A stretch of DNA of 64,000 bases from Schmidtea nova (Eukaryota). Both the position numbers and the translations under genes were made by a program. Of the stretch, positions 30,296-58,152 are shown piece after piece. Position 1 is the stretch's first letter. Each line of letters opens with the position of its first letter. The notes beneath the pieces are model-generated. The model ran no database searches. It was not told the DNA's origin and was given only the letters and a program-made list of their open reading frames with translations. The DNA is taken from positions 295,244,001 to 295,308,000 of the forward strand of contig CM097882.1 in assembly GCA_044892505.1 (NCBI GenBank), in the 5' to 3' direction.

Positions 30296-30479
30296 GAACT
30301 GATTGTCAAATCTTTCAAATTGTGATTAAATATTAATATTCAGCAGTGTTTTGTTATGTTGTTTTGAGTTTTGGTATTGTGTTTTTTAATAATTCATATT
30401 CGTAACCAAATAACCCTATGATCCGTTTCATTTTTCACATCATTTAATCATAGAGTAAATATCCTAAATACATTATAGA

Positions 30480-34051: not shown

Positions 34052-34867
34052 TTGAGAAAAGGAGCAAAGAGTGTCGTAGTAAAGCCAACGGAAAAGAAAG
34101 TCGGTAGCAACAGTAATAAAAAAGACAAAACTAGTACTACAACAAAATCAACAAAAAAGCAGAAAGCCGGCAAAGATAACCCACAAGGGAGTAAATCGAG
34201 GAAAATAATAAGAGATAAATCGATTACCGAAAACGATAAATTGTCAATAGTAAGCAACAGCTCAAGTAACAAAGAAAACCAAGCCGAACCCAAGGAGAAC
34301 CAACCAAGTGAAATAGAAAGCGACGAAACTAACAACTATAATATCGAAGAAATAGAACACGAGATAGAACAAGAAGGAGAAATCGACGAAACTAACAACG
34401 ACAATATTGAAGAAGTAGAAAACGAGGTAGAACAAGAGATAGAAATCAACGCGAGTGATAACGAAAGTATAATATCAGATAACGAAGGAATAAGAGAAAC
34501 AGAAAGCGATTCAAGCTCGAGTAAAACGGAAGACGAACATAACAACGAACTAGAAACAAGAGGAAACGAAAGTAAAATAACTCAAGACAGCGGAATTGAA
34601 ATGGGTGAACCAAGAGAAGAAATAAAGGATAAATTTTCAGGAGAACCGTTTAACGGAGATGCAAGTAAATTAGAAACCTTTTTAAAAGAATTTGGCATAT
34701 TCGTGGAAGTATGCAAATGGAAAGCTGAAACAACAGTAAGCAGAATTCAGTTATATTTGAAAGATAGTGCATTGGACCTATATTTGGAAGCGAAAAATGG
34801 TACCAATCCACCTACAAGCTGGACAGCGATAAAGGATTTTTTTCCAACAAACATTTGGAATAAATAA
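34052..34867 (+). CDS. gag: Gag N-terminal part (basic/acidic low-complexity region plus start of capsid), frameshifted into the next ORF
   Basis: EPFNGDASKLETFL..YLKDSALDLY..SWTAIKDFF. Removing one T from the T7 run at 34837-34843 gives DFFQQTFGINKVLSEAFIEFSMRKQ..NES...YA..L..LA, a continuous retrotransposon gag domain. First in-frame ATG is 34601. Confidence 0.85.
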   Translation: MRKGAKSVVVKPTEKKVGSNSNKKDKTSTTTKSTKKQKAGKDNPQGSKSRKIIRDKSITENDKLSIVSNSSSNKENQAEPKENQPSEIESDETNNYNIEEIEHEIEQEGEIDETNNDNIEEVENEVEQEIEINASDNESIISDNEGIRETESDSSSSKTEDEHNNELETRGNESKITQDSGIEMGEPREEIKDKFSGEPFNGDASKLETFLKEFGIFVEVCKWKAETTVSRIQLYLKDSALDLYLEAKNGTNPPTSWTAIKDFFPTNIWNK

Positions 34868-34868
34868 A

Positions 34869-40800: not shown

Positions 40801-43800
40801 ACGCATCGCTAGCAGCAACAACACAGTTGAAACCTGGAACCTGTACAAATGAGTTAGAAATCGATTACAAAGGAAAAGTACGATACGTTCAACCAGTGAC
40901 GAGAATCATCAATCCACCAGGGTTTGAACCAAATCCATTCAACTGTAGTAATGCGTATGGACCGCTTTATCAGAAACCAGATGGTAAATGGGTTATGTTC
41001 CCAGGAAGATCCGAAGTGATAGCACCAAGAGAATTCGAGCTAATGCAGTTGTCAAAGGATAGGCAATTCAGCGACGTGGATGTCTCAAACAACGGAATAT
41101 ATAGTCCAAAGGATTTAGAAGCAGCAAGGCAGAATATATTATTTCCAGCGAGAAGAGAAGCATTACTGTCAAATATCGTAACGATAACGGGAGGAACGAA
41201 TTATCGAGAAGGACCGAATTATGAACTGTTGTTGTCACCAGCACATTTCAAGAAAGCCACAGAAAATATGATGAAAGCAATGTGGGGAAGATTTTTGATA
41301 TTCGGACAAATGATGGCTGGAATACTGGGGGTTATATTAATCATCCAAATCGTCAGAGTAATAATAACACAAATGTTAGCATGTTTTGACATCTACAAGA
41401 GAGAAAAGAAAGTGAATTGGAAAATGGTAGTAGGATTTTTACCATTCCTTGCGAAAACGATGGTGTTACACGGTCACTCAAAAGATATCCACCGAATAAA
41501 AAGACTCCTGAAGATATTAGCAAAAATGAAGGGAACAGATGAAGAAGTAGGACGCAAATTTAAAAAGATAATGAACGACGAACAAGCAAGACAACAGCTC
41601 AAGAGAGAAAGAAAAGGTTTATGGGAGAGGATGAAAGGATATAAAACCCAAAATGATTCGAGTGACGACGATGATGACGATGACGACTATAAGGGAGGAC
41701 AAGTGTATAAGAACCAAGCACCACAATACATCGAAAAGAATCCAGCCGACGCATGGAAATGTTACGCGCCTCCACCAACAATGTATCAAGAACCACTACA
41801 AGGAGGAAAAAATAGCACGATGCAAATGATGCCAATGACAAATGTATACCCCATGATACCAGAAGATTATAAAATGAGAAGATGTAGAAGCGTAGATCCA
41901 CAAGGAGATACACACACGATCGCAGTAATGTCATCAAACACAGGTTCAGTGTTAACCACGACAATAGAGATTAACGGAAGAGAAATCGAAGCAATGATCG
42001 ACACGGGAGCAAACATTTCCGCCATCGACATCAAATGGATACCACAAGAGCAAAGACGGGAAATAGAAAGGACAAACGTCCATGTAATTGCATGTAGCAA
42101 AGAAGTTGTAGAAGTAGCAGGAAGATGGTGGGTAAAAATACGCCACTTAAACACGGAAATCGATACATACGTAGCAGTTATACCAGCGTTAAGCGTACCT
42201 TGCATCATCGGAACAGATTTGATGCCAGCATTATTTAAAGAAATTGTAATCGATCTCGGAACAATGAGACTAAAAGATCGCACAGGACAAATATGCGCAA
42301 TAGAAGCTAAAGTGACAAGTTCAAAGCAAATGATAATACCCGCAAGAAAGGAGAAAATATGTTACGTAAAAATAGATCCGACAATCCAAGGGGATATGAT
42401 TTTCGAACCAAGTAAGAGATTCGAGAAAAGAAAAGCGTTGCCAATGGCAAGAGGACTAGTCAACATAAATGACGATGGAGAAATCCCAATAAACGTAGTA
42501 AACTTCGATGAAGAGGACAAAATAATATACGAAAACGAAAGATTAGGTAAATTAACCCCAATGATGGATATCGAACTGCCCATAGAAGGAGCAGAGAAAG
42601 ATAAAGAACCAACCTGGAATATAGATAGTGAATTATTAAATGAGGATCAAAGGAAGCAGTTAGAAAAACTCCTGATAGAGTATAAGGATATATTTGCAGC
42701 ATCCGATTTGGATCTAGGAACATGTGATGTCACACTACATACAATACCATTAACAGATGAAACACCAATTGCATTAAGGCCGTACAAATTAGCGGAAGCA
42801 CAGAAGGCAGTAGCAGAAGCAGAAGTGAAGAAAATGTTGGATGCAGAAGTAATCGAACCAAGTTGTTCACCCTGGCAATTTCCAGTGGTAATGGTGAAGA
42901 AGAAAGACGGAACACAGAGATTCTGTATAGATTACCGAAGATTGAATACAGTGACAAAACGAGATACTTACCCATTACCAGACATCAACGAGATGCTACT
43001 AACATTACAAGGAGCAGCATATTTTACGTCGTTAGATCTGAAAAGCGGATATTGGCAAATAAAAATGAAGGAAGAAGATAAAGAGAAAACTGCCTTTACC
43101 ATCGGTAGAGACCTATATCAATTTCGAAAGATGCCATTTGGATTAACGAACGCACCAGCATCATTTCAGAGATGCATGAATTTCGTCACCCATGGAATAA
43201 AGCAGTGCATGGTCTACATCGACGATTTATTAATTTATTCTAGTACATTCGAACAACACATACAAGACATTCGAGATGTATTCGTTAGACTTAGACAATG
43301 GAAGTTAAAACTCAAGCCATCCAAGTGTGACTGGGCAAAAGAAAAGGTTACATTTTTAGGACATATAGTGTCAGCAAAAGGAAAAGAACCGGATCCTAGA
43401 AACATCGACAAGGTAAAAGAATGTCCAGTACCAAAAACAATAACCCAAATACAAGAATTTCTCGGATTATGTGGATATTATAGGAAGTTTATAAAAGATT
43501 ACGCCGGAATCGCAAAGCCTATACAGGAACTGGTAAAGAAAGATGTATCATTCATATGGGGAGATGGACAACAAACAGCCTTTGAAACGTTGAGAGATAA
43601 ATTGATAACCGCACCCATATTGGTACACCCAGACTTTAAGAAGCCATTCCTACTTGCAACAGATGCAAGCGGATATGCAGCAGGAGCAGTATTAGGACAA
43701 TACGATGACGAAGGAAAAGAACGTGTAATCGGATATTATAGCCGGACATTCAAAAAGCATGAGAAAAATTATTCAGTGACAGAACGGGAAGCATTAGCGA

Positions 43801-44189
43801 TTATACTAGCAATAAAACATTTTAAATATTTATTATTGGGTCACATCATCTGCATAACAACAGATCACCAACCGCTTGTATGGTTAGGACAGCACAAGGA
43901 AACATCTAGTAGACTAATGCGATGGGCAATGCAGTTACAGGAGTACTCACCGGACATAAAATTTAAATCAGGACGAGCAAATGCGAATGCAGACTGTATG
44001 TCAAGACTGACATTTCCGGAATTAACCGATCCTGATGTACAACGAATTTGTGTATTAATAGCAGAAGATTTAGATTTTAGCGAGCTTAAGAAAGATCAAC
44101 AAGAAGACAAAGAATTAGGACAAATCATAGAGTTCCTAACATCTCGAAACATGGAGGTATTCAAAGAGAATAAGGAATTAAATAAATAA
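34869..44189 (+). CDS. Polyprotein: capsid C-half, 3 zinc knuckles, Ubl x4, Bcl-2-like, Env-like glycoprotein, protease, RT, RNase H
   Basis: 3,106-aa open frame; domain motifs are listed as separate features. Confidence 0.95.
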   Translation: MLSEAFIEFSMRKQKMNESNAVYASELKKLAKSVFKDGGPINEELMAAIFIGGLRRPDIRAQVGCQGCKTIDQALETANRFELHMIGSEGRIYLAMDTAQTEPEVNLNNHIPNSQQLNRPPPQRRNEGNKVQNFESQNNYNPQRQTKQCKTCGKLGHWQQECYQNLNCGKCGVKGHSESRCSTIICFNCGRPGHYSRNCGQKSNQRGNWQSNGNRPNYGNQANTVNRPDYGNQQVNNNNNQNKTTPKEIHLMQEVQRLTELINNTTRGNPQTNQQQISMMRKIESENERLNRESQARHAQEWARIQREDEQKQQERERQPLRINMLRATNQTDTREKETTLEMNSIDPNPADNESRKEIVQKDEEVEKEAEKGEETEINQEERRKIWKKGMMVIMPNDHMFRFQYNAKEKVEILFNKVNQMIPGVTKLPREAFLQIGDAPSVKLKLTDTWENVGVTETKRNVMRIKEIEPEEIPPPIRHETRIRRIFEGKMIRRRLKEIDELGKKMGKVEVIEDKSEPTPEIDKNEQEPTENIQGETNQTAHINMLRNTTREFSDEEEDSDISSLAGDILNESEDENKEREVIKTSEPTQIKVDEIQKLLDNSLEVIYNEEFMDKKQYRKFMKALLQMNYKEWLQDREVDMLNRYVGKLIEEPLLNYTISIIINTSTPRIWIKTPFTDDIYRWVEDRLGSSYKNKFIYSQNRLVKKKTHLVETGIWPGEITLLSICDEKEEENLQEVAREANACFERRIKPRLEYEKERVLRKNLNSLIEQIIPQVKKHRKELMRSEYEKLKRCIECIRDTSHTRWSQISHDKLIAKMGKTMFRQGKITDLKISVELPNEDTKEIEVVADCTIRELINVINETLVQREPEDEWEDDIIIQYNEHVLWDHDERRLYKIGIWDNHQTIHVSRMGDTPRETAKDEKRERERRKEVVRKLQQIVEIYRNWRIGPEWENVLEELNLNRRIRTPVEKQWNEKGKCWEPKEGEYEEEYKRGIEDDCEPEMGRVCMVTRKATPIDLDGPETAAMWLEREKQKTEEFVEILKTNAHGKRKLIKGLADFFVVNGEDITCLRKVAKAIAEYKRVNEWCPEQLDHVIRKWRNQEFSQEIPQKVHLRIIYPNKDKEELWVGIAEKIRDIKKKLRYEPPFHLQHQGRSLDNSLEIGITPAQLDLMNTLTVEAIAGQPLKRKEENHKPHGSISTPSPMKSALTPGTSSRRSETTPRGNRERTPPQPYDVDEIFTDSDDMIEELTELTKEKDDNIFERIQELPTTIQVTNTGETEVEQEIIVEEVNDLTEDETRGAYAENVQLTQEMERWLEERANEPRDVTEETGRATRFVETGTGMDKRPRGRPKTDPATVVIRNKDEKRQDQWELCLKKLNKIAEMKEKETTPICQGEEWISKTIMELLAIIDPELRKYWRITEISEKAKSLHNAIAPILPEFIKEKTKSNHLDWQGTTMLIKKLTEGAETDNKYVIAIAYTIYNLLTLSRGRPKPTALERHIKNTAKIIAREIEPYVINKGGWETFIKTNQKKTQAKNMKKKFEKILEELGKEQAGTGNAKSSMNLSAIIMMMLIWMISTDSATAFEVFDCDQMKLGEKYSLRGTEQCKDATPVELQKIKKEQWYHVYQEAELIKTMVNECKVQKTRFAFYCGRGHYSAIVMPGTEREPIVLQGEDCEALFKHGEVTTRDKIKIRGKPGMMMQQTYYVAGRITGGEGYCQGETYPIFGVPATNLVVMDTYIVELKSYEAFFEPTTGEMKTLSMCKIDRSMCQTGMSTLVYKPKVNECQLQLLQGAKFDEIQGKTFQEEDDDDKARAKHLKEALENKRQLKPDHREKRIEMRATPTVLITTNQDVGMRFIKGKATLKCSTTVYETNYPGIYVSKQEVPNAKPKIDTMDIKLHLYVNNKMDFLFHRGQASLQKVYYDLINNDCILNREILKTKLAVAITNPDSAMPLLPLREGHFGRVVGEAMYVYICEKTHASLAATTQLKPGTCTNELEIDYKGKVRYVQPVTRIINPPGFEPNPFNCSNAYGPLYQKPDGKWVMFPGRSEVIAPREFELMQLSKDRQFSDVDVSNNGIYSPKDLEAARQNILFPARREALLSNIVTITGGTNYREGPNYELLLSPAHFKKATENMMKAMWGRFLIFGQMMAGILGVILIIQIVRVIITQMLACFDIYKREKKVNWKMVVGFLPFLAKTMVLHGHSKDIHRIKRLLKILAKMKGTDEEVGRKFKKIMNDEQARQQLKRERKGLWERMKGYKTQNDSSDDDDDDDDYKGGQVYKNQAPQYIEKNPADAWKCYAPPPTMYQEPLQGGKNSTMQMMPMTNVYPMIPEDYKMRRCRSVDPQGDTHTIAVMSSNTGSVLTTTIEINGREIEAMIDTGANISAIDIKWIPQEQRREIERTNVHVIACSKEVVEVAGRWWVKIRHLNTEIDTYVAVIPALSVPCIIGTDLMPALFKEIVIDLGTMRLKDRTGQICAIEAKVTSSKQMIIPARKEKICYVKIDPTIQGDMIFEPSKRFEKRKALPMARGLVNINDDGEIPINVVNFDEEDKIIYENERLGKLTPMMDIELPIEGAEKDKEPTWNIDSELLNEDQRKQLEKLLIEYKDIFAASDLDLGTCDVTLHTIPLTDETPIALRPYKLAEAQKAVAEAEVKKMLDAEVIEPSCSPWQFPVVMVKKKDGTQRFCIDYRRLNTVTKRDTYPLPDINEMLLTLQGAAYFTSLDLKSGYWQIKMKEEDKEKTAFTIGRDLYQFRKMPFGLTNAPASFQRCMNFVTHGIKQCMVYIDDLLIYSSTFEQHIQDIRDVFVRLRQWKLKLKPSKCDWAKEKVTFLGHIVSAKGKEPDPRNIDKVKECPVPKTITQIQEFLGLCGYYRKFIKDYAGIAKPIQELVKKDVSFIWGDGQQTAFETLRDKLITAPILVHPDFKKPFLLATDASGYAAGAVLGQYDDEGKERVIGYYSRTFKKHEKNYSVTEREALAIILAIKHFKYLLLGHIICITTDHQPLVWLGQHKETSSRLMRWAMQLQEYSPDIKFKSGRANANADCMSRLTFPELTDPDVQRICVLIAEDLDFSELKKDQQEDKELGQIIEFLTSRNMEVFKENKELNK
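35313..35465 (+). other. Nucleocapsid: three CX2CX4HX4C zinc knuckles
   Basis: CKTCGKLGHWQQEC, CGKCGVKGHSESRC, CFNCGRPGHYSRNC. Confidence 0.97.
36036..38399 (+). other. Region with four divergent ubiquitin-like (beta-grasp) domains (~36036-36266, 36837-37046, 37359-37595, 38199-38399)
   Basis: By-eye alignment to ubiquitin, best for LKISVELPNEDTKEIEVVADCTIRELINVI..IIIQYNEHVLWD..RRLYKIGIWDNHQTIHV. Confidence 0.6.
39057..39446 (+). other. Bcl-2-like domain
   Basis: BH2-like EPYVINKGGWETF and BH1-like KLTEGAETDNKYVIAIAY in an all-helical ~130-aa segment. Confidence 0.75.
39552..41468 (+). other. Env-like glycoprotein: signal peptide, Cys-rich ectodomain and TM; chuvirus-G / gB-like class III fusogen type
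   Basis: MNLSAIIMMMLIWMISTDSATA|FEVFDC..YSL..EQC..VYQ..CKV..FYCG; YVNNKMDF..LQKVYYDL..DCIL.R..L...LA..NP..A..L..GHFGRVVGEAMYVYIC; CTNEL..Y.G..RYVQPVTRII..C; TM FLIFGQMMAGILGVILIIQIV (41292-41387). Confidence 0.85.
41964..42270 (+). other. Aspartic protease (retropepsin)
   Basis: IEINGREIEAMIDTGANISAI (DTG at 42000) and CIIGTDLM. Confidence 0.95.
42720..44010 (+). other. pol: Reverse transcriptase plus RNase H (Ty3/Gypsy type)
   Basis: SPWQFPVVMVKKKDGTQRFCIDYRRLN, LDLKSGYWQI, MPFGLTNAPASFQR, YIDD (43215); TDASGYAAGAVL, YSVTEREALA, TDHQPL, NANADCMSR. Confidence 0.98.
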
Positions 44190-44215
44190 TTAAATAAGGA
44201 ATAAATAAAGGATGG

Positions 44216-47200
44216 TTGTTAATACAAGACGGAGAAAAGAGATTGATGTGTTTACCGGAAAACAGAAGGAAAGAGATAATGATCCAGTACCATGATGGGA
44301 AATTAGGAGGCCATATGTCCGAGAAGAAGACAATAAATCGTATGAGACAAAAATATTATTGGCGAACAATGGAAGAAGATATAAAAGAATGGATTAAAAA
44401 TTGTCTAACTTGCGCAACCAGAAAGGATAGTGGGAAGAAATGGAAGAACCCGCTACAACCAATGCCGATACCAGCAGAACCAATGACAACTATAGCAATG
44501 GACGTAATAGGACCATTACCGGAAAGTCTAAACGGAAATATTTGTATATTAGTGATAACAGATTATCTGACAAAATTCCCGGAAGCATTTGCCATGCAAG
44601 ACCAAAAAGCAAAAACTGTAGCAAAAATTTTAGTGGAAGAAATATGTTGCAGATACGGAACCCCAAAACAAATACTCACAGACCAAGGAACTAATTTTAT
44701 GAGCGAGCTATTGAACGAGGTAACAAACTATTTCAGAATAGCAAAATTGAGAACTTCACCATATCACCCGCAAACGAATGGACAAACGGAGCGATTCAAT
44801 GGTACATTGATTAGAATGTTATCAAATTACGTCAGCAGACATCAAACTGATTGGGACGAATACATAAAATTATGTTTAATGGCATACCGAATGTCGATAC
44901 ATGCAGCAACAAAACTAAGCCCATTTCAACTTATGTATGGAAGAGAATGCAACATGCCCATAGATTTAGAGTATCAGCCACCATTATCGCAATATATGGA
45001 AGACGACGACTACATAACCAAATTCAAAGAAAGAATGCAGGAAATATGGAAAACGGCAGAACTCAACATTAAATTTTATCAGGAAAGTTATAAGGACTTA
45101 CACGATCAGAAGAAAAATGTTAAAGCGAACGATCTAAAACCAGGAGATTGGGTGATAATAGAAACTCCCGAAATAATACCAGGAACAGTTAAGAAACTCC
45201 AAAGACCTGGAAGAGGACCTTATGAAATTATATACAAAAAGGACAATAATGTCAAAGTTAAGCTAATAAATCGACCCTTAATACGACCCATATATGTAAA
45301 CACCTGCAGATGTAAAAAGGTGCCTAAAACGATAACTACAACACCAGAAAATCGAATAATAACTAGATCACAAACAGCCAGGATAAATATGCTCAGAGCT
45401 AATGTAACTGAAGACGACAAAGCAGAAATAAGGCAAAAAGAAATCAGAAACAAAGAGATCATATTGAAGGCGAGAGAAATAATGGGAAGATGGCATGTTA
45501 GAGACGAAGCAGGCATATCAAGGGATATTAGACATATGATTAGCCGTTACGCACAAGGATTACCAACCGAACCAATTATTTCTGAATTATTGGAAAAAAT
45601 CCCTGAAATACTCTTATTGAAAGATGTAGGAGGACAACCAGCCTTACATAATGCGATAGAGTGTAAAAACATTGAAAGAGCAAAAGAATTCCTAAAAATC
45701 GCAAAAGAAACAAACCAAAACTTGGACGTAGGGAATCGGGAACAAGAAACTCCATTAATGACAGCCGCAATCCACCAAGCAGATAAAGAAATGATAGACC
45801 TATTGATAAAAGCCCATTTCAGTTGGACAGAACGAGATAGAGAGGACAAAACAGTGCTAAATCACGTAATATGGAGTTCTCACCAACCAATGCTGAAATA
45901 CATAATAGCTAACTCCACTTGGGAGATAGACGAACTAGTTAAAGGAGACATTATCAAAGAGGCAATCAAAATTGGTAAATGCAACACGATCCGTAAGTTA
46001 GTCAAATGGAAACGACCAGAAGATGATACATGGGTCTTAGACATAAACGAAGTATACAGCGAAGGACAAAACGCGTTGTTAAGATATCTTCTGAAATTTA
46101 CTTGTGATCAGAAGACATTACTAACCTTATTAGACAGAGGAAACATAAACATCACAAAGAATGAAGAAGAATACAAATTCGATAAAGAGAAGGAAGCCTT
46201 ATTCAACAAGATTAGGAAATGGTGTGCGAAACCACTTGACAAACTAATAACATACAAAGACATAAACAATTTTAACGAGAAATACCAGACAATAGTAAGT
46301 GAGTACGAGGAATTAGTAAAAATCTTAAACCATCCCGAAAAATGCAAACAGGTTTTGGAGAAAAAAGAAAGAGAAAGTAACAAGAAACTCACACCACTCT
46401 TTAAAGCAGAAGCACCATACCAAGCTAGACTAGATGCGATACAAGAAAAAGCAAAAGAATTGTTACCAGAATTCGAGAATAGTAAACATGCACTGGAAAT
46501 ACTCGGTGCATTAGTTGAAAAAGTACACGCATACGCAAAAGGAACTTACAACGGAAACGACATAGTAATAATAAAAAAGGAGATGCCAGTAACATTTTTA
46601 CTACCAAAGGACGGAATAATGCCCATACATAGAGCTCTACGAAATGGCAAAGATAGAAAAGTAATGGAAATTGCAAGAGTAATGCAAAATTGCGGAAGCA
46701 ATATGAATATGATAGACGAGAAAGGAGATACACTTATGGTATTTGCAGCAAGGGCCAAAACGAAAACAAAGGTATTAGAGGAACTATACAAAGCAGGTGC
46801 AGGACTTACAGGAAAGACAGATAAAGATAATTCGATATTGGATGTAGCATTATTAACACACAATTGGGAAATGGTCAATTTCATTAAAACCGTCCCAAAT
46901 CAGGAAGAAATAGATCACCTAACTGATACGGTCAAGAAACCCAGTGTACTAGCAATGATGAACAACGTCGAACTAACAGAATCAATACTTACGTGGATAA
47001 ATCCTAATACTAACGAACCAGCATTCAGGATTAATAAATTTACAGAACATAACCAAAACTGGTGTATAAGAAGTGCCTTAATAACGTATAAATGGCCAGA
47101 GATATTGAAGATGTTTATGGAAAGAAAGGATCTAAGAATCACAAACAGCCCGAAAGAAGAAAAATACACAGGCAAATGGAAAGAATTGATGAAGACATAC

Positions 47201-48805
47201 GTCAACAATTGGATCAAGGCCAAAAAGGAAATCTTAGAATATAAATCCGCTAACAAAGCAATACCGGAGCAAGTAGAAACACAAGAATTTGAGGCAAGTA
47301 ATCTAACGACATTGGCATATGCAAAATTGATAGAAGAAATCAATGTCGAGGACGACATTTTCGACGAGCCAGGGGGAGATGACAATACAGATAGTGACGA
47401 CGGTAACAACTCAGAAAATCCAAGCGATCACGAACCACCCGATAAAGAGGAAAACGAGAGAAAAGACAAGAAACGAGACAAGGAAGGAAAGAAAGGTGAA
47501 GACGAAAAACAAAGAGATGAAGAGAGAGAACAAGGAACAAACGACCAAGGAGATAAAAATGACACCCAAAGAACAGGTTATAAATCAACCATAAAACCAT
47601 TCTTCAAACCAGAATTACTATTACTAACAATGATTATAACGTTAATTAATCCAAGTCAGGGAATGACATGTGAAGAAAGGGCAATAATACAAATAAAAAA
47701 CGCAAAAGGAATCGAACGAGTATGTTGGTCGAAAAAGGACAAAATCACGGAACAAAATAGCCCGATGGATTGCAGAATCTCAAAACACGAGCAAGAGATC
47801 ATAGAGATCAATGACTTAGATCTAGATACCTGGTACAAAATATGCACCGTTAGAAAACAAAAACATCCAAGATCACACAACACAATCGCATGTGCAAAAT
47901 ACCAAACACCTAAAGCAGCCATGACAATACAACAGTCACCCAAAGGAGATTACATCATCGGAAAATGTGGAAGAACAGAGACACAGAGAACAGAAAATAA
48001 AAAACCCCAGGCAATAGATAAGCAAACAACACCAACCCTACGAATTACAATAGAAAGGCCCGAAACAAGAATTGCCACAAACGAAACCGAAAGAGTGTCT
48101 TACCAAATGGAAGTATTATGCTTAGCACTCATACTAATAATAATAAAACGATTAGAGGAAGGAATAGAAATTGAAACTATGACAATAACAGAAGTGGAAG
48201 ATACACAGAACACTAACATAAAATGTTGGGCGAGGAATAACGAGGAAATCGGCGTAAATGAAATAAGGAAAAGTCGAAAACCCACAACAAACAAAGTAAT
48301 TAAAGTATCCGAAGTAAGAGCAGACAAGACGTACAAACTATGCCTATTAGAAAAAGAGACAAACAAGAAAGGTACCACAAAATGTAAAACATTCCAACCT
48401 GGAGAAGTAATAAAGTTCAGAAGGAGAACGAGGAAGAGAAATAAACAAATCAAACAGAAAATAAACATAACATTAGAAATAAAAGAGATAGAACCAAATG
48501 TGAAAGGAGTATGCTGGAGGAAGTACGAAAAAGAAACAAATGAAAGAAAGACACCACAATGTCGAACAAGCACAGGAGCAACGACGATACAAATAAAAGG
48601 TTTAGAAAGTAAACAAACTTATGAAATATGTCTCGTAAAGAAAAATGATCAGATAACGATAAACGACCTAGAATGCGGAATATACACCACTTCATCCGGA
48701 ACAAGAACTAAAACGATAACACGAAAAAATAAAAGAAGACAACGAAACAAAGGGAAACCGAAGTACACCACTACCTTTAAAAAAAAAACAATAAACAACC
48801 GATAA
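44216..48805 (+). CDS. Polyprotein continuation: integrase, ankyrin repeats, acidic linker, internal signal, FN3-like repeats
   Basis: HDGKLGGH..CLTC zinc-binding domain; MDVIGP, TDQGTNF, NGQTERFN (DDE); GPY; ankyrin clusters 45629-45910 and 46610-46891; signal-like LLLLTMIITLINPSQG (47615-47662). Confidence 0.93.
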   Translation: MLIQDGEKRLMCLPENRRKEIMIQYHDGKLGGHMSEKKTINRMRQKYYWRTMEEDIKEWIKNCLTCATRKDSGKKWKNPLQPMPIPAEPMTTIAMDVIGPLPESLNGNICILVITDYLTKFPEAFAMQDQKAKTVAKILVEEICCRYGTPKQILTDQGTNFMSELLNEVTNYFRIAKLRTSPYHPQTNGQTERFNGTLIRMLSNYVSRHQTDWDEYIKLCLMAYRMSIHAATKLSPFQLMYGRECNMPIDLEYQPPLSQYMEDDDYITKFKERMQEIWKTAELNIKFYQESYKDLHDQKKNVKANDLKPGDWVIIETPEIIPGTVKKLQRPGRGPYEIIYKKDNNVKVKLINRPLIRPIYVNTCRCKKVPKTITTTPENRIITRSQTARINMLRANVTEDDKAEIRQKEIRNKEIILKAREIMGRWHVRDEAGISRDIRHMISRYAQGLPTEPIISELLEKIPEILLLKDVGGQPALHNAIECKNIERAKEFLKIAKETNQNLDVGNREQETPLMTAAIHQADKEMIDLLIKAHFSWTERDREDKTVLNHVIWSSHQPMLKYIIANSTWEIDELVKGDIIKEAIKIGKCNTIRKLVKWKRPEDDTWVLDINEVYSEGQNALLRYLLKFTCDQKTLLTLLDRGNINITKNEEEYKFDKEKEALFNKIRKWCAKPLDKLITYKDINNFNEKYQTIVSEYEELVKILNHPEKCKQVLEKKERESNKKLTPLFKAEAPYQARLDAIQEKAKELLPEFENSKHALEILGALVEKVHAYAKGTYNGNDIVIIKKEMPVTFLLPKDGIMPIHRALRNGKDRKVMEIARVMQNCGSNMNMIDEKGDTLMVFAARAKTKTKVLEELYKAGAGLTGKTDKDNSILDVALLTHNWEMVNFIKTVPNQEEIDHLTDTVKKPSVLAMMNNVELTESILTWINPNTNEPAFRINKFTEHNQNWCIRSALITYKWPEILKMFMERKDLRITNSPKEEKYTGKWKELMKTYVNNWIKAKKEILEYKSANKAIPEQVETQEFEASNLTTLAYAKLIEEINVEDDIFDEPGGDDNTDSDDGNNSENPSDHEPPDKEENERKDKKRDKEGKKGEDEKQRDEEREQGTNDQGDKNDTQRTGYKSTIKPFFKPELLLLTMIITLINPSQGMTCEERAIIQIKNAKGIERVCWSKKDKITEQNSPMDCRISKHEQEIIEINDLDLDTWYKICTVRKQKHPRSHNTIACAKYQTPKAAMTIQQSPKGDYIIGKCGRTETQRTENKKPQAIDKQTTPTLRITIERPETRIATNETERVSYQMEVLCLALILIIIKRLEEGIEIETMTITEVEDTQNTNIKCWARNNEEIGVNEIRKSRKPTTNKVIKVSEVRADKTYKLCLLEKETNKKGTTKCKTFQPGEVIKFRRRTRKRNKQIKQKINITLEIKEIEPNVKGVCWRKYEKETNERKTPQCRTSTGATTIQIKGLESKQTYEICLVKKNDQITINDLECGIYTTSSGTRTKTITRKNKRRQRNKGKPKYTTTFKKKTINNR

Positions 48806-51069
48806 GCCAAGAAGTTACGACAAAACCCGAGAAAAAGACATCAGCAACTCTAACATTATGGAAAATAGAGAATAAAACATTAGAAATATGTTGGATAATA
48901 GTTCAGAAACATATAAGAAGACAATCAAGAGAGTGCAGAAAAACAAATAAAGAAATCAAGATCGAAAAACTACAATTTAATAGCGAGTATGAAGTATGTA
49001 CAATAGAAAAAACGGACGCACTAGGAAACCAACAAGAAAGATGCGAAACCTACTATACACCAGCGAACGCAACATCAAAAGGAATAACAAGGAAACTCGA
49101 ATTCAGGGAACTAAGCCAAACGAATGAACAAATGGACACAGAAAAAACAATAACCGACCCTCAAGCAAAATGGACACCCGAAGAAGTTATCAAGGAAGTC
49201 AAAAGAAAGCAAGAGGAACGGGAACAATTAATGAGAAAACTAAAGGGACAATACGGAATAATGTTCAACCAAAGCGAATCTATGCAAACAGACGAGAATA
49301 AAGAAATTAAAGAACTAATTGGCTTAGGAATACTAACAGCAACCATACCAGTAATAATCGCGTTATCAGCTATATGGCTACGCAAGATAAGCCCAAGAAA
49401 ATCAACAACCCAATGGCTAAATATAGATAATACAAGCCATGGAGTAGAAATACTAGAAGAAAAAGCACGAGAAGAACCAAATAAGAAAGAAGCGAAAAGC
49501 GGAAAACTAGGAATAAACAACAAAGACAAGGAAATAAAAGAGATTAAAGGCGAAGAGAAAAAATATGAAAGGCGAACCAGAAGCCTACCGCAGAGTTCAA
49601 AATGGTTGGGTCTAACAATAATATTGACATTAATCAATAGGGAAGAAGCAATAAACCCACAGACAGGGATAAAAGTAATAAATGTCCAGGAAGTCGAGAA
49701 AATATGTTGGTATAGAGAAGAGGAACCAATTGGAGAAAATAACCCACTAAAATGCATAATCAGAAAATCCGACCAGGATATCGTACGAATAGAAGAAATG
49801 GATGGAGGAACCATGCATCGGATATGCATAATAGAAAAGGAAAAGAAGTCGGGGCTACCTAAGACAGTCGTATGCCAGAAATATGAAACGCCTAGACTTG
49901 AATGGTATAGAGTAAAACCAACAAAGAAAGAAATCAAAAACACAATAGATCAACCAGCAACTCAGATAAAAAACATAACGGATAAACCAAGAGAAGGGGA
50001 GAGAAGCATAAATAACACGAGAAAAGGAGCATCACCCCAACAAGATGTCGTATGCATAGCGTTAATAATAGCAATGTCCAAACGTATCAACAAAGGAATA
50101 ACAATAGAACAAATGGCCATGACAATAAGGAGAAAAGGCCGGAGTAGCAACAAAATATGCTGGGGATGGTACAACGAACAAAAAGAATACCAAGTTCAGA
50201 CAAGCGACGAATCACGAACAAACAAGGAAACCGAAATACAAGAAATACAAATGGACGGAGAAGGAAGTATATGTATATGGGAGAAAGGAATCCAAGAAGA
50301 TCAACCCGGAATAGAAAAGTGCAAGACATTCCAAAAAGGAGAAATTCTGAAATTCGATGAAGAAGAATTAACCAAAACAGAAAGAACTCTGACATTAACA
50401 GGACTCGATCAGACAGTTAAAGGAATATGTTGGACAAAGCATAACCCAGAAGGGGAAGAAGACAATTTAACCCACTGTAGAGAAATAAAGAATAAAGAAA
50501 AAGTCGAATTAAAGAAAATGGAAGTAAATAGGACATACGCGATATGTACCTTCACCAGAAAAGGTTCAGAAAAACCAGAATGCGGATTATATCAGATCTC
50601 AGAGAAACTACAACAACAGATCGAACCAGGAAACGTGGAAAACCGAACAAAAGAAAATAACGTCAAAAAACTACTAAATCGCCATTGGTCTACACAAGAA
50701 GTAATGAACAAAGTTAAGAGTCAAGTACAGAAGGAGAAGAAGCCAGAGGCTCAAACCCAAAATGAGATTAAAGCGAATCAGAATAAAATCAAAGCAACAA
50801 ACCGTGGAAAAACAGTAATAGGATTAATCAGTATAGGAATATTAATAGCATATGGGATAATGACGACAAGCATGATAATATATTGGAGATACAGAAAGAG
50901 AAACAAAGCGACAGCCATACAATGGCCAGATATTAAAATTATGAAGCAAAGAATAGAAATACCAGAAGAGATACAGCAAGAATTCCAAAGAAGAACGAAA
51001 GGTAAAGAATTCTGGAAACAAATAGAAGATGAAGAAAGATACGAGGAAAAGACGATAATGATGGTATAG
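48781..51069 (+). CDS. Polyprotein tail: FN3-like repeats and TM segments; -1 frame relative to the previous ORF
   Basis: The frame is open from 48781, 117 codons before the track's ATG at 49132, and that part encodes another repeat (TLEICW..KLQFNSEYEVCT). The junction is an A10 run at 48779-48788. TMs at 49315-49380 and 50815-50886. Confidence 0.85.
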   Translation, partial: KKNNKQPISQEVTTKPEKKTSATLTLWKIENKTLEICWIIVQKHIRRQSRECRKTNKEIKIEKLQFNSEYEVCTIEKTDALGNQQERCETYYTPANATSKGITRKLEFRELSQTNEQMDTEKTITDPQAKWTPEEVIKEVKRKQEEREQLMRKLKGQYGIMFNQSESMQTDENKEIKELIGLGILTATIPVIIALSAIWLRKISPRKSTTQWLNIDNTSHGVEILEEKAREEPNKKEAKSGKLGINNKDKEIKEIKGEEKKYERRTRSLPQSSKWLGLTIILTLINREEAINPQTGIKVINVQEVEKICWYREEEPIGENNPLKCIIRKSDQDIVRIEEMDGGTMHRICIIEKEKKSGLPKTVVCQKYETPRLEWYRVKPTKKEIKNTIDQPATQIKNITDKPREGERSINNTRKGASPQQDVVCIALIIAMSKRINKGITIEQMAMTIRRKGRSSNKICWGWYNEQKEYQVQTSDESRTNKETEIQEIQMDGEGSICIWEKGIQEDQPGIEKCKTFQKGEILKFDEEELTKTERTLTLTGLDQTVKGICWTKHNPEGEEDNLTHCREIKNKEKVELKKMEVNRTYAICTFTRKGSEKPECGLYQISEKLQQQIEPGNVENRTKENNVKKLLNRHWSTQEVMNKVKSQVQKEKKPEAQTQNEIKANQNKIKATNRGKTVIGLISIGILIAYGIMTTSMIIYWRYRKRNKATAIQWPDIKIMKQRIEIPEEIQQEFQRRTKGKEFWKQIEDEERYEEKTIMMV

Positions 51070-51551: not shown

Positions 51552-51645
51552 ATAAATAAAGCGGAAAACTGTAAATATGTAAAAAATAAAAACAAGAAAA
51601 ATCCAAAAATAAATGACAAGTCGAATGTATATATTATTGTAGAAA

Positions 51646-53022
51646 ATGGACAGAGAAGAACGAATAATCGAAATTTTGAGACTAGAAAACAGAAAATGGA
51701 GCAAGAGGCTCACCTGCGGGAAATGTAGTAATTTACTACGAGAACCCAGACAAACGATATGTGGATGTAGAATATGTACAAAATGTATACAAGAATTAGA
51801 GGTAACAGGAATAACAACATGCCCAGAATGTAAAGAAGGAAGAATAGTGTTGAACGAAACTAGAACGGACAAAGCAACTCAAAGAGAAATTATGAGCACC
51901 ACAACGGAGTGCGTAAATACACCTTGTGTATGGCAAGGACAGATAAGCAATCTAGAGAACCATATGGAGAAATGCGAGGAAAAGAAAGCCGAATGCGAGA
52001 AATGCCAACAGACAATAACTCTAAAGAAGAGAGAACAACACAAGGAAGAATGTAAAGAAGAAGAAATCGCATGCGAGTATTGTGAAACTCGAGAAACGAG
52101 GAGAAAAATCGAAGAGGAACACTTAAATATAACAGAGGAGAAAGTATGCAGACAATATGTAAGTAAATGTCCAAACAATTGCGAAATAACAGAAGAAGTA
52201 AAATTACATGAACATTGGAAAGTATGTACCGAAAGACCAAGAGAATGTCCATATAACAAACAGGGATGCAAAGAAAAGCGGACGCGGCAATCAATGAAAC
52301 AACACCTAGAAGAAGCAGCACTAACGCATGTAGAAATGACAAACGAAACAACAAAAGAAACGGAACAGACACTCCAGAAATTAGAAAAAGAAGTAGAATC
52401 ACATAAGATAATGATAAGTTTACTACTAGAAACAAGAGAGCAGTTTGAACTAACTCGCGAAAGAATGGAAAAGAAAATAATAGCCATAGAAGAATTAGGA
52501 AAAGGAATGAAAATACAATATAATCAATTAATACGAGAAATTGACGAAAGAAGGGACTTACCAATCGCACCTTACCTATGGAAAGTAACAGATTTCAGAG
52601 ACAAACTAGCAGAAGCCAGAAATATGACGAAAACAGCAGTAATAAGCCCACCATTTTATTTATGGAAAAACGGGGTTAAAATAAGATTGAAAGTATACCC
52701 AAATGGAGACGGAAGAGGACAAGGAACACAAGTGTCAATATTCTTCTCACTATGTAAAGGAGAATACGATGACCTAATAGAATGGCCCTTGAAAGTAGGA
52801 GTCATTATCAGAATCAAAAGTATGGGAAAACCAGTAGAAAAGTTCTTTGAAACAGACAAACATTCGAGTACGAGCGAAAAACCAACAACAGAATGCGGAC
52901 TAGCAGCAGGAGAACCAATGTTTATAAGGAAGGAAAACCTATGGGAGCGACTATATGCAGACACGCTATACATAGAGATGGAGAGGCATGAGAAAACAGA
53001 CAGAAAAGGATGGTTGGCGTAA
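51646..53022 (+). CDS. Full-length TRAF-like protein (RING, TRAF zinc fingers, coiled coil, MATH), 458 aa
   Basis: RING CGKCSNLLREPRQTICGCRICTKC..CPEC; CVNTPCVWQG..HMEKC; MATH YLWKV..SPPFY..RLKVYPNGDG.G.GTQVSIFF.L.KGEYD.LIEWP. Confidence 0.95.
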   Translation: MDREERIIEILRLENRKWSKRLTCGKCSNLLREPRQTICGCRICTKCIQELEVTGITTCPECKEGRIVLNETRTDKATQREIMSTTTECVNTPCVWQGQISNLENHMEKCEEKKAECEKCQQTITLKKREQHKEECKEEEIACEYCETRETRRKIEEEHLNITEEKVCRQYVSKCPNNCEITEEVKLHEHWKVCTERPRECPYNKQGCKEKRTRQSMKQHLEEAALTHVEMTNETTKETEQTLQKLEKEVESHKIMISLLLETREQFELTRERMEKKIIAIEELGKGMKIQYNQLIREIDERRDLPIAPYLWKVTDFRDKLAEARNMTKTAVISPPFYLWKNGVKIRLKVYPNGDGRGQGTQVSIFFSLCKGEYDDLIEWPLKVGVIIRIKSMGKPVEKFFETDKHSSTSEKPTTECGLAAGEPMFIRKENLWERLYADTLYIEMERHEKTDRKGWLA

Positions 53023-53134
53023 TGAAGGAAGTAACCATGTAAATAAAATGTATAGAAACAATATGAATTAACAAATAATCAAAAACAATAAAAATAAAAA
53101 ATGATTAAATATTCTTTTATCTGTAATTATAGAA

Positions 53135-54196: not shown

Positions 54197-54271
54197 ATGT
54201 GCGAAAACCAAGTGTAAATAAATTATGTAAAATAAAAAGTGTCAAGCTGTATTGACCGATGTATAAAAGAA

Positions 54272-54841
54272 ATGAGAAAGCTCGCAATAGCAACACTCCT
54301 ATGGTTAACAACCATTACCCTACAGAGAGAAGATCTACAACTAACCGAAACCCAATTACGAGTTCTACCCGACAAAACCTATCAGAAAGTAGACAGCCTA
54401 ATCGAAGAAGTAATTAAAGAAATCAACGAATTCCGACAGAAATTCCCCCACAATCAAGATCGTCAAATCCAACAAATCTTCGATAATCAACAACTGAAAC
54501 TAGAAGAAACCCGAAAAATCCTGAAAGAAGGTAGAGAACCCATAAAAAGCCTATCCCAAGCTGAAATAGAATATCAAGAGAAATGGATCATAGCAATCAT
54601 CATAATCCTAGCAGTCAGCACAACTATCATCGCAATCACAATCCTAATTGCCTCATATAGAATAAAAATCCTAAAACAAAAGCAGAAAATCTACAACCAA
54701 ACCTCCAGACGAGATAACCGAGCTCAAAGACGAATAAGGAGCCATCTCAACCACATTCAAACCCACTACGAGCTACAAATGATCAACGAGAGGACCCGAA
54801 CTCAACCCCAAGCGAGCCAGACGATCGAACAAATTGTATAA
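54272..54841 (+). CDS. Accessory type I membrane protein (signal, short helical ectodomain, TM, basic tail)
   Basis: ATG 54272 MRKLAIATLLWLTTITL; TM WIIAIIIILAVSTTIIAITILIAS followed by YRIKILKQK. The track start 54239 is a GTG. Confidence 0.75.
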   Translation: MRKLAIATLLWLTTITLQREDLQLTETQLRVLPDKTYQKVDSLIEEVIKEINEFRQKFPHNQDRQIQQIFDNQQLKLEETRKILKEGREPIKSLSQAEIEYQEKWIIAIIIILAVSTTIIAITILIASYRIKILKQKQKIYNQTSRRDNRAQRRIRSHLNHIQTHYELQMINERTRTQPQASQTIEQIV

Positions 54842-55044: not shown

Positions 55045-56423
55045 TGTTGGGCCCGCCAAATCACCTAAAAACACAATAAAACGAACAAAAGCATGAAACA
55101 ATAAAGAAATAATAAAAATAAAAATAGCAAGAAAAACAAATTAAAAATAACAATAAAACGACAAATAATAATTGATAAATTTTCAGTAAAAGGAAATTTT
55201 GAAATAAACCGGTAAACAACCGCAAAGGGGGGCCTGAAATAAGAAAAAATAGAATTAAATAAAATAATAGTACAAATAATTAATTAATTACTTGGAAAAT
55301 CAGGACCACCCAGCGAGAAACCGGAAAAGGAAACAAAATAATGTTTAGGTTAGATTAAAATAATAAAAATACTTTGATGGACGGCCTGATCCTGATTGGT
55401 CAATCCAACCAGACGGATCAGTATAAATACCGATCCAAAAATCACAGACTAGAGACGTTTTACATTTCACTTACAATCAAGACTAAACTTTGATTTAAGT
55501 AACATTTCATTTAACGAAGCGAGAATTTTTTGAAAAAACAGAATTCAAGTACGGAACGTAATTTTGATTGTTATTTTTTATGTACCCATGATTTTTATTT
55601 AATTAAAAGTTTATATGTAAAAGTTATTTTATTTTTTCATGGATTATTTTTAATGCATATAGCTATACTTCCTATGCTGCTCACGCGGCGAGGGAGTCCG
55701 AGTCGTCGTCGTGGGGCCTCAGGGTCTCACATGGCGGTTCAACCTTTTTATTATTTAATTTAGATGTGAAGTTTTATCTAGAAAATTTGATTGAATTTTT
55801 AGTCTAATACAGACCATTTGCAAATTATTTAATTTTGGGTTGCACAACGGACGAAGGTCGAGGGCCAAATATGTAGATTGCGGAGGGCGGATGGATAAGG
55901 AGGGACACACCATGGTAGGGCATGCTCAGTCTTTAAATTTTTGGTAAATTGAATCGAAAGGGAACCTCCCGCATGGAAAACAGTGAGCAACAACTAAAAT
56001 AAATTTGAATAATTTCGTTGGAATGAGAAAATCCAACGTAGTCCAAAGTCCGAATTCATTCGGAATCAGCATTTCGCCTACAAAATTTTAATATCGATAA
56101 ATTCCGATCGCGATGGAATGCGTCGGAAAATCCAAATTAAATTAGTTACTAAAAATAGGCCGATCGTCGTATATGACGCGGTTTCCCAAGTTATTCTCCG
56201 ATCGCTGTATATAGCGCGGAAATCTTGAGTAAATTTGATAATTCCTGAATGCTGTATATAGCACAGGACTAATTATGAACTCTTTATTCCGACCGTGGTA
56301 GATCACGGCGGAGAGAAATAAAATTAATCTTATTTTTTAACTGTTGTGATTATATGCAACATAATTAAATTATCAACGAATTTCCCCCTTAACTCATATT
56401 TATATCCAATAAATGTAATATAG

Positions 56424-56903
56424 ATGTCGACAGCTGAACTTACAAATCAATTAACGCAACTACGGAATATGGAGCAAGGGAATCTGCGGAATGAAAATCT
56501 CTCGCAGCTCAAGGAACTACCAGCATCGATATTGCGAACCCTCAACTGCCAAATGTATCAGTGGCGACAGGGGTTTGGCCGAAAATGCCCGTTCTCGATA
56601 TGGACAGGAGGGCACGACCAAATACTCTATCGAGGAGGACCGAACTGGCCGATTTCTCAAAGGCCGTACTCAAACAAATTTGGCCGACTTGTCGTACTGA
56701 TCAAGGACACCGATGGACAGACAAGCCGTGTAATTTATTGGGGGCATATCCCTCGTCGAGAGCTGTGCCAATTGGGTCTGCACGAATTCCTGCCGCGAAA
56801 ACCCTTCGGCAAGGAATGCCAGAAAGGACAACCTGCGTTTTCCTGGGCTCGTCTCCGACAGAAACCGATTAACAGCGAATTACATAGCCTGTTTCGGAGA
56901 TAA
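56424..56903 (+). CDS. LTR ORF A, 3' LTR copy
   Basis: Translation identical to 29816..30295. Confidence 0.8.
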   Translation: MSTAELTNQLTQLRNMEQGNLRNENLSQLKELPASILRTLNCQMYQWRQGFGRKCPFSIWTGGHDQILYRGGPNWPISQRPYSNKFGRLVVLIKDTDGQTSRVIYWGHIPRRELCQLGLHEFLPRKPFGKECQKGQPAFSWARLRQKPINSELHSLFRR

Positions 56904-57087
56904 GAACTGATTGTCAAATCTTTCAAATTGTGATTAAATATTAATATTCAGCAGTGTTTTGTTATGTTGTTTTGAGTTTTGGTATTGTGTTTTTTAATAA
57001 TTCATATTCGTAACCAAATAACCCTATGATCCGTTTCATTTTTCACATCATTTAATCATAGAGTAAATATCCTAAATACATTATAGA

Positions 57088-57684
57088 ATGAACCCAGATT
57101 TGATGCAGAAAGAATTGGAAAAGATGTGGCGGATTCGGAGAGCCCAGGACAAGGAATTGGGTCTCCTCAAGGCACAATTGATCAAAGCAGAGGCACAGAT
57201 TGCATATTTGCGCAAAAGCTGGTTTGCTCCGGCCCGAATGAAGGAGCAAATCAGTAAAACCGAGCGCGCCCAACAGACTGCAGCCGATTACCAAATGGAA
57301 TGGGAGGCTACAAAGATAGAACTCCGAAAATGCCTCCATTCCGTAACTGCCTCATACATCGAGAAGGAACTCAGAGAGCAAATCCGTCCGATTACGTACC
57401 AAGCTTGGACGGCAGAAAAGAAGACAGTAAACTCCATTGGAACGGATGTCCCCGATTTAATTGAAAGTCGGAATGAGACAGCTCCTCCAGCCAATTCAAC
57501 CACTTCATCGGCGACTGCGCACCAGAAACGCAAGCGCATTGGGCAGAAACGGCGGAGACAGAGAAAATTATTTGCCCAGCAATTACAAATCCAAGTCGAT
57601 GGTCTACATCAGATGACTGAGGAAGCATTATTGACGGAGATTTTTCCTCCGGCGGGAGTTTTTACCGAACTCATTAAAAATTAA
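57088..57684 (+). CDS. LTR ORF B, 3' LTR copy
   Basis: Translation identical to 30480..31076. Confidence 0.8.
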   Translation: MNPDLMQKELEKMWRIRRAQDKELGLLKAQLIKAEAQIAYLRKSWFAPARMKEQISKTERAQQTAADYQMEWEATKIELRKCLHSVTASYIEKELREQIRPITYQAWTAEKKTVNSIGTDVPDLIESRNETAPPANSTTSSATAHQKRKRIGQKRRRQRKLFAQQLQIQVDGLHQMTEEALLTEIFPPAGVFTELIKN

Positions 57685-58152
57685 ATAAATTGTTGCATTG
57701 GCTTAAGAATCTCATCGTTCATTTAAATTGATTTAATTAACTTTACCAATGATTAAATAAAGATAGAACAAAAGTATAAATTCAGTTTACAAAATATCGA
57801 ATAGAGATAATTAAATAATTAAGCGAGCATTCGTTGAAATACTTCTCGCAGACTGAGTAATGATAAAAATAAATTTTCTGAAAGATTAACACGGAATACC
57901 TAAGGGGATGATTAAAGCGTAAGTCCTTCTAACGGCAGCAATGGACCCGTAAACATAAATGGGGAGTAGTACTAGCGATAGTGCTCACCTGCCCATCATT
58001 GTTTAACCACCCTGCGCATCACCAACTTGATTATATAGGGAAATAATCAAGGGCGCTTGAGTGAAAAATTGCAATTTTATGCATGATCATGGATGAGGGA
58101 TCCCTAGTCATTGTTAGAGCATTTTTCATCTAACCCCTCCATGAACCCAGCA

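Follow-up and report, generated by a model that had tools for sequence, protein, structure and literature searches.

What do the last coding units of a giant retroelement polyprotein encode, and what might they do for the element that carries them? The question is raised by a 29.7-kb Burro-like Ty3/gypsy long terminal repeat (LTR) element (28437-58152) of Schmidtea nova, which lies in a 64,000-nucleotide stretch of contig CM097882.1 (GenBank assembly GCA_044892505.1, positions 295,244,001 to 295,308,000 of the forward strand; this whole stretch is the window, and all coordinates refer to it). The polyprotein of this element ends in two units, A and B, which are paralogous, and each carries cysteine-containing repeats resembling the fibronectin type III (FN3) domain, a stalk, one transmembrane (TM) helix and a basic tail. 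That signal peptidase releases two type I glycoproteins from this region is, taken alone, likely. Our fuller reading is that A and B are type I surface glycoproteins of a Burro-like polyprotein, released by internal signals and acting as the attachment partners of the element's fusogen; this is the explanation toward which we lean, tentatively and with real reservation.

The paralogy of the two units was apparent at the protein level. The first part of unit A shared 107 of 363 residues with unit B (29%, E = 2e-46), and the second part of unit A was 25% identical to the end of unit B (E = 3e-5). No long match existed between them in DNA, the best one outside the overlap of the test pieces being 89 bases at 69%, and because this match is so short and weak the duplication must be old. 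An earlier note on this DNA, written from the letters alone, had described a tandem duplication here; the relationship between the units was borne out, whereas unit A proved not to be a single reading frame. All the motifs which that note had named were found where it placed them, including the TM segments: TMIITLIN (47627) and TIILTLIN (49615) in a first hydrophobic segment (H1), VLCLALI (48113) and VVCIALI (50047) in a second one (H2), WTPEEV (49171) and WSTQEV (50686) in the stalks, and QWLNI (49411) and QWPDI (50920) in the tails. The layout of both units is the same, running from H1 through one repeat, H2, two further repeats (three in unit A), stalk and TM helix to the tail. The WSTQEV region weakly resembles the beginning of a SAM domain (SAM_Ste50p, E = 0.033, over 20 residues only), but this was rejected, since the motif belongs to the stalk and nothing like the rest of a SAM domain comes after it.

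Seven repeats were found in an order that the two units share (R1 corresponds to R5, R2 to R6 and R3 to R7, R4 being the extra repeat of unit A). Their pairwise identity is 14-36%; a Cys-Trp pair, a cysteine in strand F and a cysteine in strand G are invariant in all seven, and a tyrosine follows the E-F loop in five. The pattern of cysteine spacing had seven matches in the units and none in the remaining polyprotein or in any of 2000 shuffles, although, being derived from these same repeats, it shows their order and has no independent significance. The count of seven in the earlier note thus stands, but its pattern as written does not fit throughout, its second cysteine being missing in R2 and R6, and the further motif L..GT.Y.LCV was literally present in none of the seven repeats when the alignment was inspected by eye.

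Models of usable confidence were obtained for two of the seven repeats, R7, folded with the seven-repeat alignment, and R5, folded together with R6 inside a model of the whole unit B ectodomain. The R7 model has six strands, and comparison with 48,161 representatives of the Protein Data Bank (PDB) by VIA-align placed an FNIII domain of sDscam first; among the 50 chains listed, 49 bear FN3 domains judged by their titles. Because the match starts at about FN3 residue 14, these six strands should be B to G, with strand A lying upstream; strands B-G were confident and strand A was seen only at a predicted local distance difference test score (pLDDT) below 50. The best match of R5 was an FN3 domain of fibronectin (scores for both repeats are given in the table). 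The whole-ectodomain model had a mean pLDDT of 51.6, and in it R5 and R7 folded again, R6 was all-beta at low confidence and H2 formed a low-confidence helix. Sequence comparisons pointed the same way faintly. Pfam searches with single repeats gave Fn3_ELFN for two of the seven (E = 0.11-0.13) and fn3 for one (E = 0.15), and no significant match to an FN3 family was obtained, the best (E = 0.11) scoring about 12.6 bits where the Fn3_ELFN cut-off is 27. A PDB sequence search with the repeat profile returned three weak rows, including contactin-4 (E = 0.64), and one with the unit alignment A3 returned none. These models, in weak but concordant company from the sequences, support R5 and R7 as FN3-like beta-sandwiches. 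The earlier note implied beta-sandwich folding of the repeats, and the two that could be modelled came out that way; its FN3 assignment is upheld by their fold and not by any significant match to FN3 families.

With cellular FN3 proteins (Dscam, contactin, fibronectin, ELFN/LRFN) the repeats share the fold of R5 and R7 and the tyrosine after the E-F loop, and they have a cysteine pair in strands F and G like that of FN3 proteins with leucine-rich repeats (LRR). They differ from these proteins in giving no significant sequence match, in lacking LRR or immunoglobulin (Ig) domains, in being encoded inside a retroelement polyprotein, in having, in strand C, a Cys-Trp pair and probably with it a second disulfide, and in a strand A that is absent or poorly defined in the models. 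The suggestion that the units belong with LRR-Ig-FN3 surface proteins (LRFN, ELFN, LRRN) was accordingly dropped, since beyond the marginal Fn3_ELFN scores neither unit had an LRR or Ig match in Pfam.

The arrangement of hydrophobic segments, charges and cysteines indicates which parts of the units would face outward, the topology being taken from an approximate hydrophobicity scan. Basic residues follow both TM helices, and since a basic flank marks the cytosolic side of a membrane helix (the positive-inside rule) the tails are predicted to be cytosolic and the repeats to be outside. All 30 cysteines precede the stalks and so fall in the predicted outer part, 18 in the ectodomain of unit A and 12 in that of unit B, both even numbers, while the 333 residues of stalk, TM helix and tail contain none. 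These even counts require the cysteine of H2 to be included, and R2 and R6, which directly follow H2, are the two repeats without a partner for their Cys-Trp cysteine; the two extra cysteines of unit A flank R1, both within insertions specific to that unit. We infer an internal signal role for H1 and, for H2, passage into the lumen, where it would be tied to R2 or R6. As the model is too uncertain around H1, this segment may alternatively be the first strand (A) of the repeat that follows it and no signal peptide. TM helices, charges and cysteine placement together support a type I single-pass anatomy, in agreement with the earlier proposal of a membrane protein separate from the fusogen. The fusogen itself has the layout of signal (39564), ectodomain and TM helix (41310) inside the polyprotein, according to the same kind of scan.

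We propose that, once the cytosolic Pol and ankyrin parts have been made, H1 of unit A would send the chain into the endoplasmic reticulum (ER), where signal peptidase would cut it, the repeats would fold in the lumen with disulfides and the TM helix would stop transfer. H1 of unit B would then repeat ER entry and cleavage, yielding two separate proteins, just as the upstream fusogen would use its own internal signal. Polyproteins of bunyaviruses and alphaviruses are cut at internal signals in this manner. A and B would be made one-for-one with a fusogen of the herpesvirus gB type and would reach the plasma membrane and budding particles, where, with FN3 heads on a stalk, they may form the attachment (receptor-binding) half of a two-component entry system; duplication and gain of repeats would widen or tune the range of binding. 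The journey to particles and the attachment role are the weakest steps of this scheme. Herpesvirus gB requires separate receptor-binding glycoproteins, and entry by two components is known from gD and gH-gL acting with gB and from the attachment protein of paramyxoviruses acting with F. As predicted separate, stalked surface proteins beside a fusogen, units A and B resemble such systems, a likeness we offer as analogy only.

No close relative of the repeats came to light in the searches made with the units. Word-seeded searches found no homologue of unit B among 5319 candidates of near length and no match to the unit alignment A3 among 5951 proteins of 645-2000 residues. When a profile of the seven repeats was run with HMMER over 1.84 billion representative sequences, 19 proteins scored between E = 2e-6 and E = 8e-4 and none reached 1e-10. 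No match in a structure search of BFVD reached E = 0.001. Relatives of the element as a whole were reached through its integrase-bearing open reading frame (ORF), used as a query against proteins of 2688-5000 residues, which yielded 19 hits. Eight of these (P0021-P0027 and P0029) share the Gag-fusogen-Pol order and form, together with the window element, one clade of reverse transcriptases (RT; support 96/97) in which the window branch is long, RT identity 51-57% and fusogen identity 33-39%. A signal-like hydrophobic segment follows the integrase in seven of the eight, and a second TM segment, the anchor, in five at a threshold of 19 residues or six in a looser scan; P0022 has neither segment and P0029 no clear anchor. 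Because these proteins are kin and share their traits, the seven count as one inherited arrangement and not as seven independent events. Among the other 11 hits, P0034 has its env after the integrase, and none of the remaining 10, which are without fusogen, has such segments. The domains at this position vary: an Ig domain in P0029 (Ig_3, E = 1.5e-5), a small cysteine-rich domain in P0023 and P0027, and beta-rich domains in P0021, P0024, P0025 and P0026, with an FN3-like E-F motif recognized by eye. Each relative has a single unit of one or two domains, and none has ankyrins. A membrane protein after the integrase is thus common to related elements, which agrees with the surface protein that had been suggested for the polyprotein end, and a conserved fusogen beside a freely exchanged stalked head fits a receptor-binding partner.

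A wider view of this clade would be that of a two-component envelope, with a conserved gB-type fusogen and an exchangeable receptor-binding protein after the integrase whose head (FN3, Ig or cysteine-rich) was repeatedly derived from adhesion proteins of the host; we regard this as doubtful. Under it, and with the same doubt, the window element would have expanded the position into two paralogous multi-FN3 spikes.

Some further features of the relatives deserve record. In five of the eight (P0021, P0022, P0025, P0026 and P0027) a second or third aspartyl-protease-like domain stands after the integrase, directly before the signal-like segment where one exists, and the window element has its ankyrins there. 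The predicted cytosolic tails of P0023 and P0027 contain PPxY motifs, which we take to be of the late-domain or Nedd4 type. In the stalk of P0021 a short motif similar to WTPEEV was seen by eye, some 40 residues ahead of the TM segment.

Several observations weigh against an attachment role or against the anatomy on which it is built. Other class III fusogens, such as rhabdovirus G and baculovirus GP64, attach unaided, we found no particle of this element described in the literature consulted, and the remaining cargo of the element (RING, TRAF, ankyrin) is of a kind that modulates the host. The hydrophobicity of H1 is moderate and lower than that of the relatives' signals, and H1 of unit B lies along the FN3 strand-A position in the model (pLDDT 35-39). 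H2 of unit A, at a Kyte-Doolittle (KD) value of 3.8 over 11 residues, could stop transfer, which would upset the topology. On the fold, usable models cover R5 and R7 only, that of R6 being of low confidence; the Z scores of 7.8-8.4 are near the level that the tool deems common for beta-sandwiches (Z below 8 may be a common arrangement); and no Foldseek match for R7 reached E = 0.001, the rows beginning with an FN3 domain of collagen XX (E = 0.026) and continuing with many IgV and T-cell-receptor Ig domains. The comparison with relatives is also affected. The fusogen-less control is weak, eight of its 10 proteins being gene models from one pseudoscorpion; none of the four beta-rich stretches had a Pfam fn3 match; and the relatives' ectodomains aligned with the window repeats at an hhalign probability below 1% and gave no hmmsearch match, so that homology between them was rejected at present sensitivity.

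The same anatomy would also suit proteins that stay on the host cell as receptor mimics or decoys, binding a cytokine-like ligand or an adhesion receptor, altering the cell's signalling or immunity and possibly wired through their tails to the TRAF-like and RING products; this is the main rival explanation, which we think possible though rather unlikely. It draws on the TRAF-like ORF right after unit B and the RING ORF, on the structural matches, among which FN3 domains typify receptors for cytokines and adhesion, and on the retention of QW.[ND]I in both tails, which suggests a cytosolic partner. The cargo of Burro elements has moreover been described as regulators of apoptosis and ubiquitin (PMC6431247), and an IAP-like region of Burro1 reportedly protects stem cells, according to a second-hand citation (PMC13465017). 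However, relatives with no TRAF, RING-IAP or ankyrin in their Pfam lists fill the same position, and because they do, the position should be older than the host-modulating cargo of Burro and travel with the fusogen. That link to the fusogen, with which the units share one polyprotein here and in seven of the eight relatives, could also be read as a block to superinfection or a chaperone: within the cell that makes them, the units would bind the element's fusogen, or the receptor of that fusogen, and so restrain the fusogen or protect the cell from being entered again. Such a partner should be conserved, yet the ectodomains are not detectably related where the fusogens keep about a third of their residues, and we consider this explanation improbable.

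Slightly less probable still is a different topology, with H1 belonging to a cytosolic FN3 domain as its strand A, or with H2 stopping transfer, so that some repeats would face the cytosol and only part of each unit would be outside. The strands of R7, which leave strand A upstream, the alignment of H1 of unit B with that strand in the larger model and the want of a clean small residue at -3 in the same segment speak for it. Nevertheless H1 is a run of 11 uninterrupted hydrophobic or threonine residues, unlike an edge strand, model confidence at H1 is low, the cysteine counts are even and the tails free of them, and the relatives have clear signal-like segments at this place. Least probable of all, in our view very improbable, is that the units are passenger or decaying cargo, a captured fragment of a host adhesion receptor with no current function. 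Three frame breaks in this copy, and the failure of two word-seeded searches and one full HMMER search to find any close relative of the repeats, are what it would explain. Against it, protein identity between A and B has fallen to 29%, yet both still keep long frames, all the repeat cysteines, the TM helices and the short motifs of tail and stalk, which requires long purifying selection, and the LTRs are identical, so the family has recently been active.

Whether this copy could make such proteins is a separate matter. Unit A is split over two frames, the ORF 44198-48805 stopping after R3 and the ORF 48781-51069 holding R4, the anchor of unit A and all of unit B. The polyprotein has three frame breaks (near 34840, 44190 and 48779), the break in unit A lying at a run of ten A and the other two at a run of T and at a short repeat rich in A and T. 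Because of the break in unit A and the two upstream, full-length A and B could not be produced from this copy by plain translation. No stable RNA structure was found downstream of any of the three breaks (z from -0.97 to 0.62), the values at the A run being -0.17 and 0.24. Programmed frameshifting at the run is disfavoured, as no structure follows it and the other breaks also fall in low-complexity sequence, though a programmed shift or slippage there is still conceivable. A homopolymer lesion or a long-read error is more likely and, because the LTRs are identical, the simplest account of the breaks. More speculatively, the break at the A run might serve for regulation, giving either a secreted form with three repeats or the anchored forms.

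The positions of these features and of the rest of the element are collected in the following table.

Table 1. Features of the Burro-like element and of polyprotein units A and B (window coordinates; R, repeat; H, hydrophobic segment).
Feature	Position	Strand	Remarks
5' LTR	28437..31544	+	3108 bp, TG...CA ends; preceded by target-site duplication CATA; identical to 3' LTR
Accessory ORF, C3HC4 RING finger	31877..32338	+	zf-C3HC4_3, E 3.5e-11 (Pfam)
Gag, gB-type/Monjiviricetes fusogen, protease, RT, RNase H	34019..44189	+	Gag frame break near 34840
Integrase, ankyrin repeats, acidic linker	44198..47614	+	in frame with unit A; Integrase_H2C2, E 1.7e-20; Ank_2, E 9.7e-13
Unit A H1, probable internal signal peptide	47615..47662	+	hydrophobicity scan
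R1, FN3-like	47663..47914	+	4 repeat Cys and one A-specific Cys
Unit A H2	48113..48145	+	one Cys; hydrophobicity scan
R2	48164..48403	+	3 Cys
R3	48458..48697	+	4 Cys; fn3, E 0.15
A10 run, reading-frame break inside unit A	48779..48788	+	the element's only A or T run of at least 9
R4, extra repeat of unit A	48835..49065	+	4 Cys
Unit A stalk with WTPEEV	49066..49314	+	0 Cys
Unit A TM helix	49315..49380	+	net charge -2 before, +4 after
Unit A predicted cytosolic tail with QWLNI	49381..49602	+	continues in frame into unit B
Unit B H1	49603..49650	+	probable internal signal peptide, alternatively strand A of R5
R5, modelled FN3-like	49651..49896	+	4 Cys; Z 8.3, rmsd 2.7 over 87 residues to 1oww
Unit B H2	50047..50079	+	one Cys; helix in low-confidence model
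R6	50098..50340	+	3 Cys; all-beta in model, pLDDT 30-51
R7, FN3-like strands B-G	50374..50604	+	4 Cys; pLDDT 81.5; Z 7.8, rmsd 2.5 over 71 residues to sDscam FNIII
Unit B stalk with WSTQEV	50605..50814	+	0 Cys
Unit B TM helix	50815..50886	+	net charge +3 before, +5 after
Unit B predicted cytosolic tail with QWPDI, polyprotein end	50887..51069	+	ORF end
Accessory TRAF-like ORF (RING, TRAF zinc finger, MATH)	51643..53022	+	MATH_2, E 3e-20; zf-TRAF, E 2.3e-7
Small accessory ORF, N-terminal hydrophobic stretch and strong TM (54587)	54236..54841	+	further single-pass membrane protein
3' LTR	55045..58152	+	CATA directly after
Z scores and root-mean-square deviations (rmsd) are from VIA-align.

All long ORFs inside the element lie on the + strand. 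Self-comparison of the window showed a direct repeat of 3,109 bases with 0 mismatches, and the identity of the LTRs means that the insertion is very recent. Each LTR holds two ORFs, one of 159 codons (29816-30295 in the 5' LTR, 56424-56903 in the 3' LTR) and one of 202 codons (30468-31076 and 57076-57684), neither of which has a good match in Pfam. The stretch just 3' of the first LTR (31545-31570) resembles a tRNA-Pro primer-binding site, and no tRNA gene was found in the window. Tandem arrays lie between the RING ORF and gag (32814-33078, 29 bp x 9.1; 33121-33438, 32 bp x 9.9). Within 34833-44189 Pfam recognized Gag zinc knuckles, the fusogen (PF24664, E = 2.8e-71), protease, RT (RVT_1, E = 2.2e-37) and RNase H, the break near 44190 falling between RNase H and integrase. 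Inspection by eye suggested, ahead of the fusogen signal (35980-39500), up to three ubiquitin-like stretches and one BCL2-like stretch that contains a GGW motif, and a dUTPase-like stretch between protease and RT (42290-42620), none of them confirmed by the libraries: Pfam on five such cargo stretches gave only Ubiquitin_4 (E = 0.13) in one, the BCL2-like stretch had no PDB match, and no BIR domain was matched by Pfam in the window proteins. The accessory ORF 53105-54196 encodes a long coiled-coil protein. With the small ORF near the 3' LTR counted in, the membrane proteins of the element may number four.

The insertion site appears to lie in the remains of a hAT-like transposase gene (27552-28436 and 58153-58260) whose frame runs across the target site; this gene was recognized by a motif and found no confirmation in Pfam and PDB searches. 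The flanks of the element are AT-rich, and the left one contains an inverted repeat of 390 bp at 98% identity (19650-20834) and a dispersed family of short repeats (21139-26738), with five N gaps between 6282 and 19649.

How much of this was already known? Burro elements (Burro1/GYPSM1 and Burro2-4) are giant planarian Ty3/gypsy elements of over 30 kb with env in frame between gag and the protease, RT, RNase H and integrase domains, cargo of ankyrin repeats, TRAF/MATH and RING, and tandem repeats before gag (PMC6431247). As far as that description goes, the window element is like them in its size of about 30 kb, LTRs, Gag-env-Pol order, ankyrin, TRAF/MATH, RING and repeats before gag, and unlike them in having TRAF in a downstream ORF and no BIR match; its polyprotein, the three pieces taken together, has about 5,600 residues, against 4,873 and 5,140 quoted for Burro (PMC6431247). 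Neither FN3 nor a second membrane protein is listed for Burro there, and the word 'fibronectin' does not occur in the main text (PMC6431247). Errantiviruses with GAG-ENV-POL order and an env of the herpes simplex virus gB type are reported from Platyhelminthes, Bryozoa and Nematoda (PMC13524379); the window element shares their gene order and fusogen type, and its fusogen resembles, by eye, six Schmidtea mediterranea rows of that survey, chiefly Smed_errantivirus_5, to which it is not identical. By themselves this likeness and the AT-rich flanks would point to a dugesiid planarian as host. In its available text the survey treats signal peptides and TM segments for env only and places a chromodomain after the integrase; neither 'fibronectin' nor 'immunoglobulin' occurs in the main text, nor 'fibronectin' in seven supplement files (PMC13524379). 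The accessible parts of PMC8532177, PMC11410931 and PMC13238120 held nothing on domains. In the literature listings we found no FN3 or Ig membrane protein after the integrase of an LTR element, and an earlier mention is possible. The type of element is therefore known; new is that a Burro-like polyprotein ends in a second, multi-FN3 membrane protein that has been duplicated, in a position where other members of the clade have other heads.

These units account for about 1,150 polyprotein codons that are left unannotated in the available descriptions. Even if the units proved to be decoys, they would extend to the cell exterior a cargo that is known from these elements as intracellular and anti-apoptotic. 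Envelope-bearing retrotransposons have been described with one envelope gene, and a second, variable surface protein at a fixed place in the polyprotein would change how their choice of target cell is viewed. Such a protein would bear in this way on whether the Burro elements of planarians are infectious and on why they show tissue-specific patterns.

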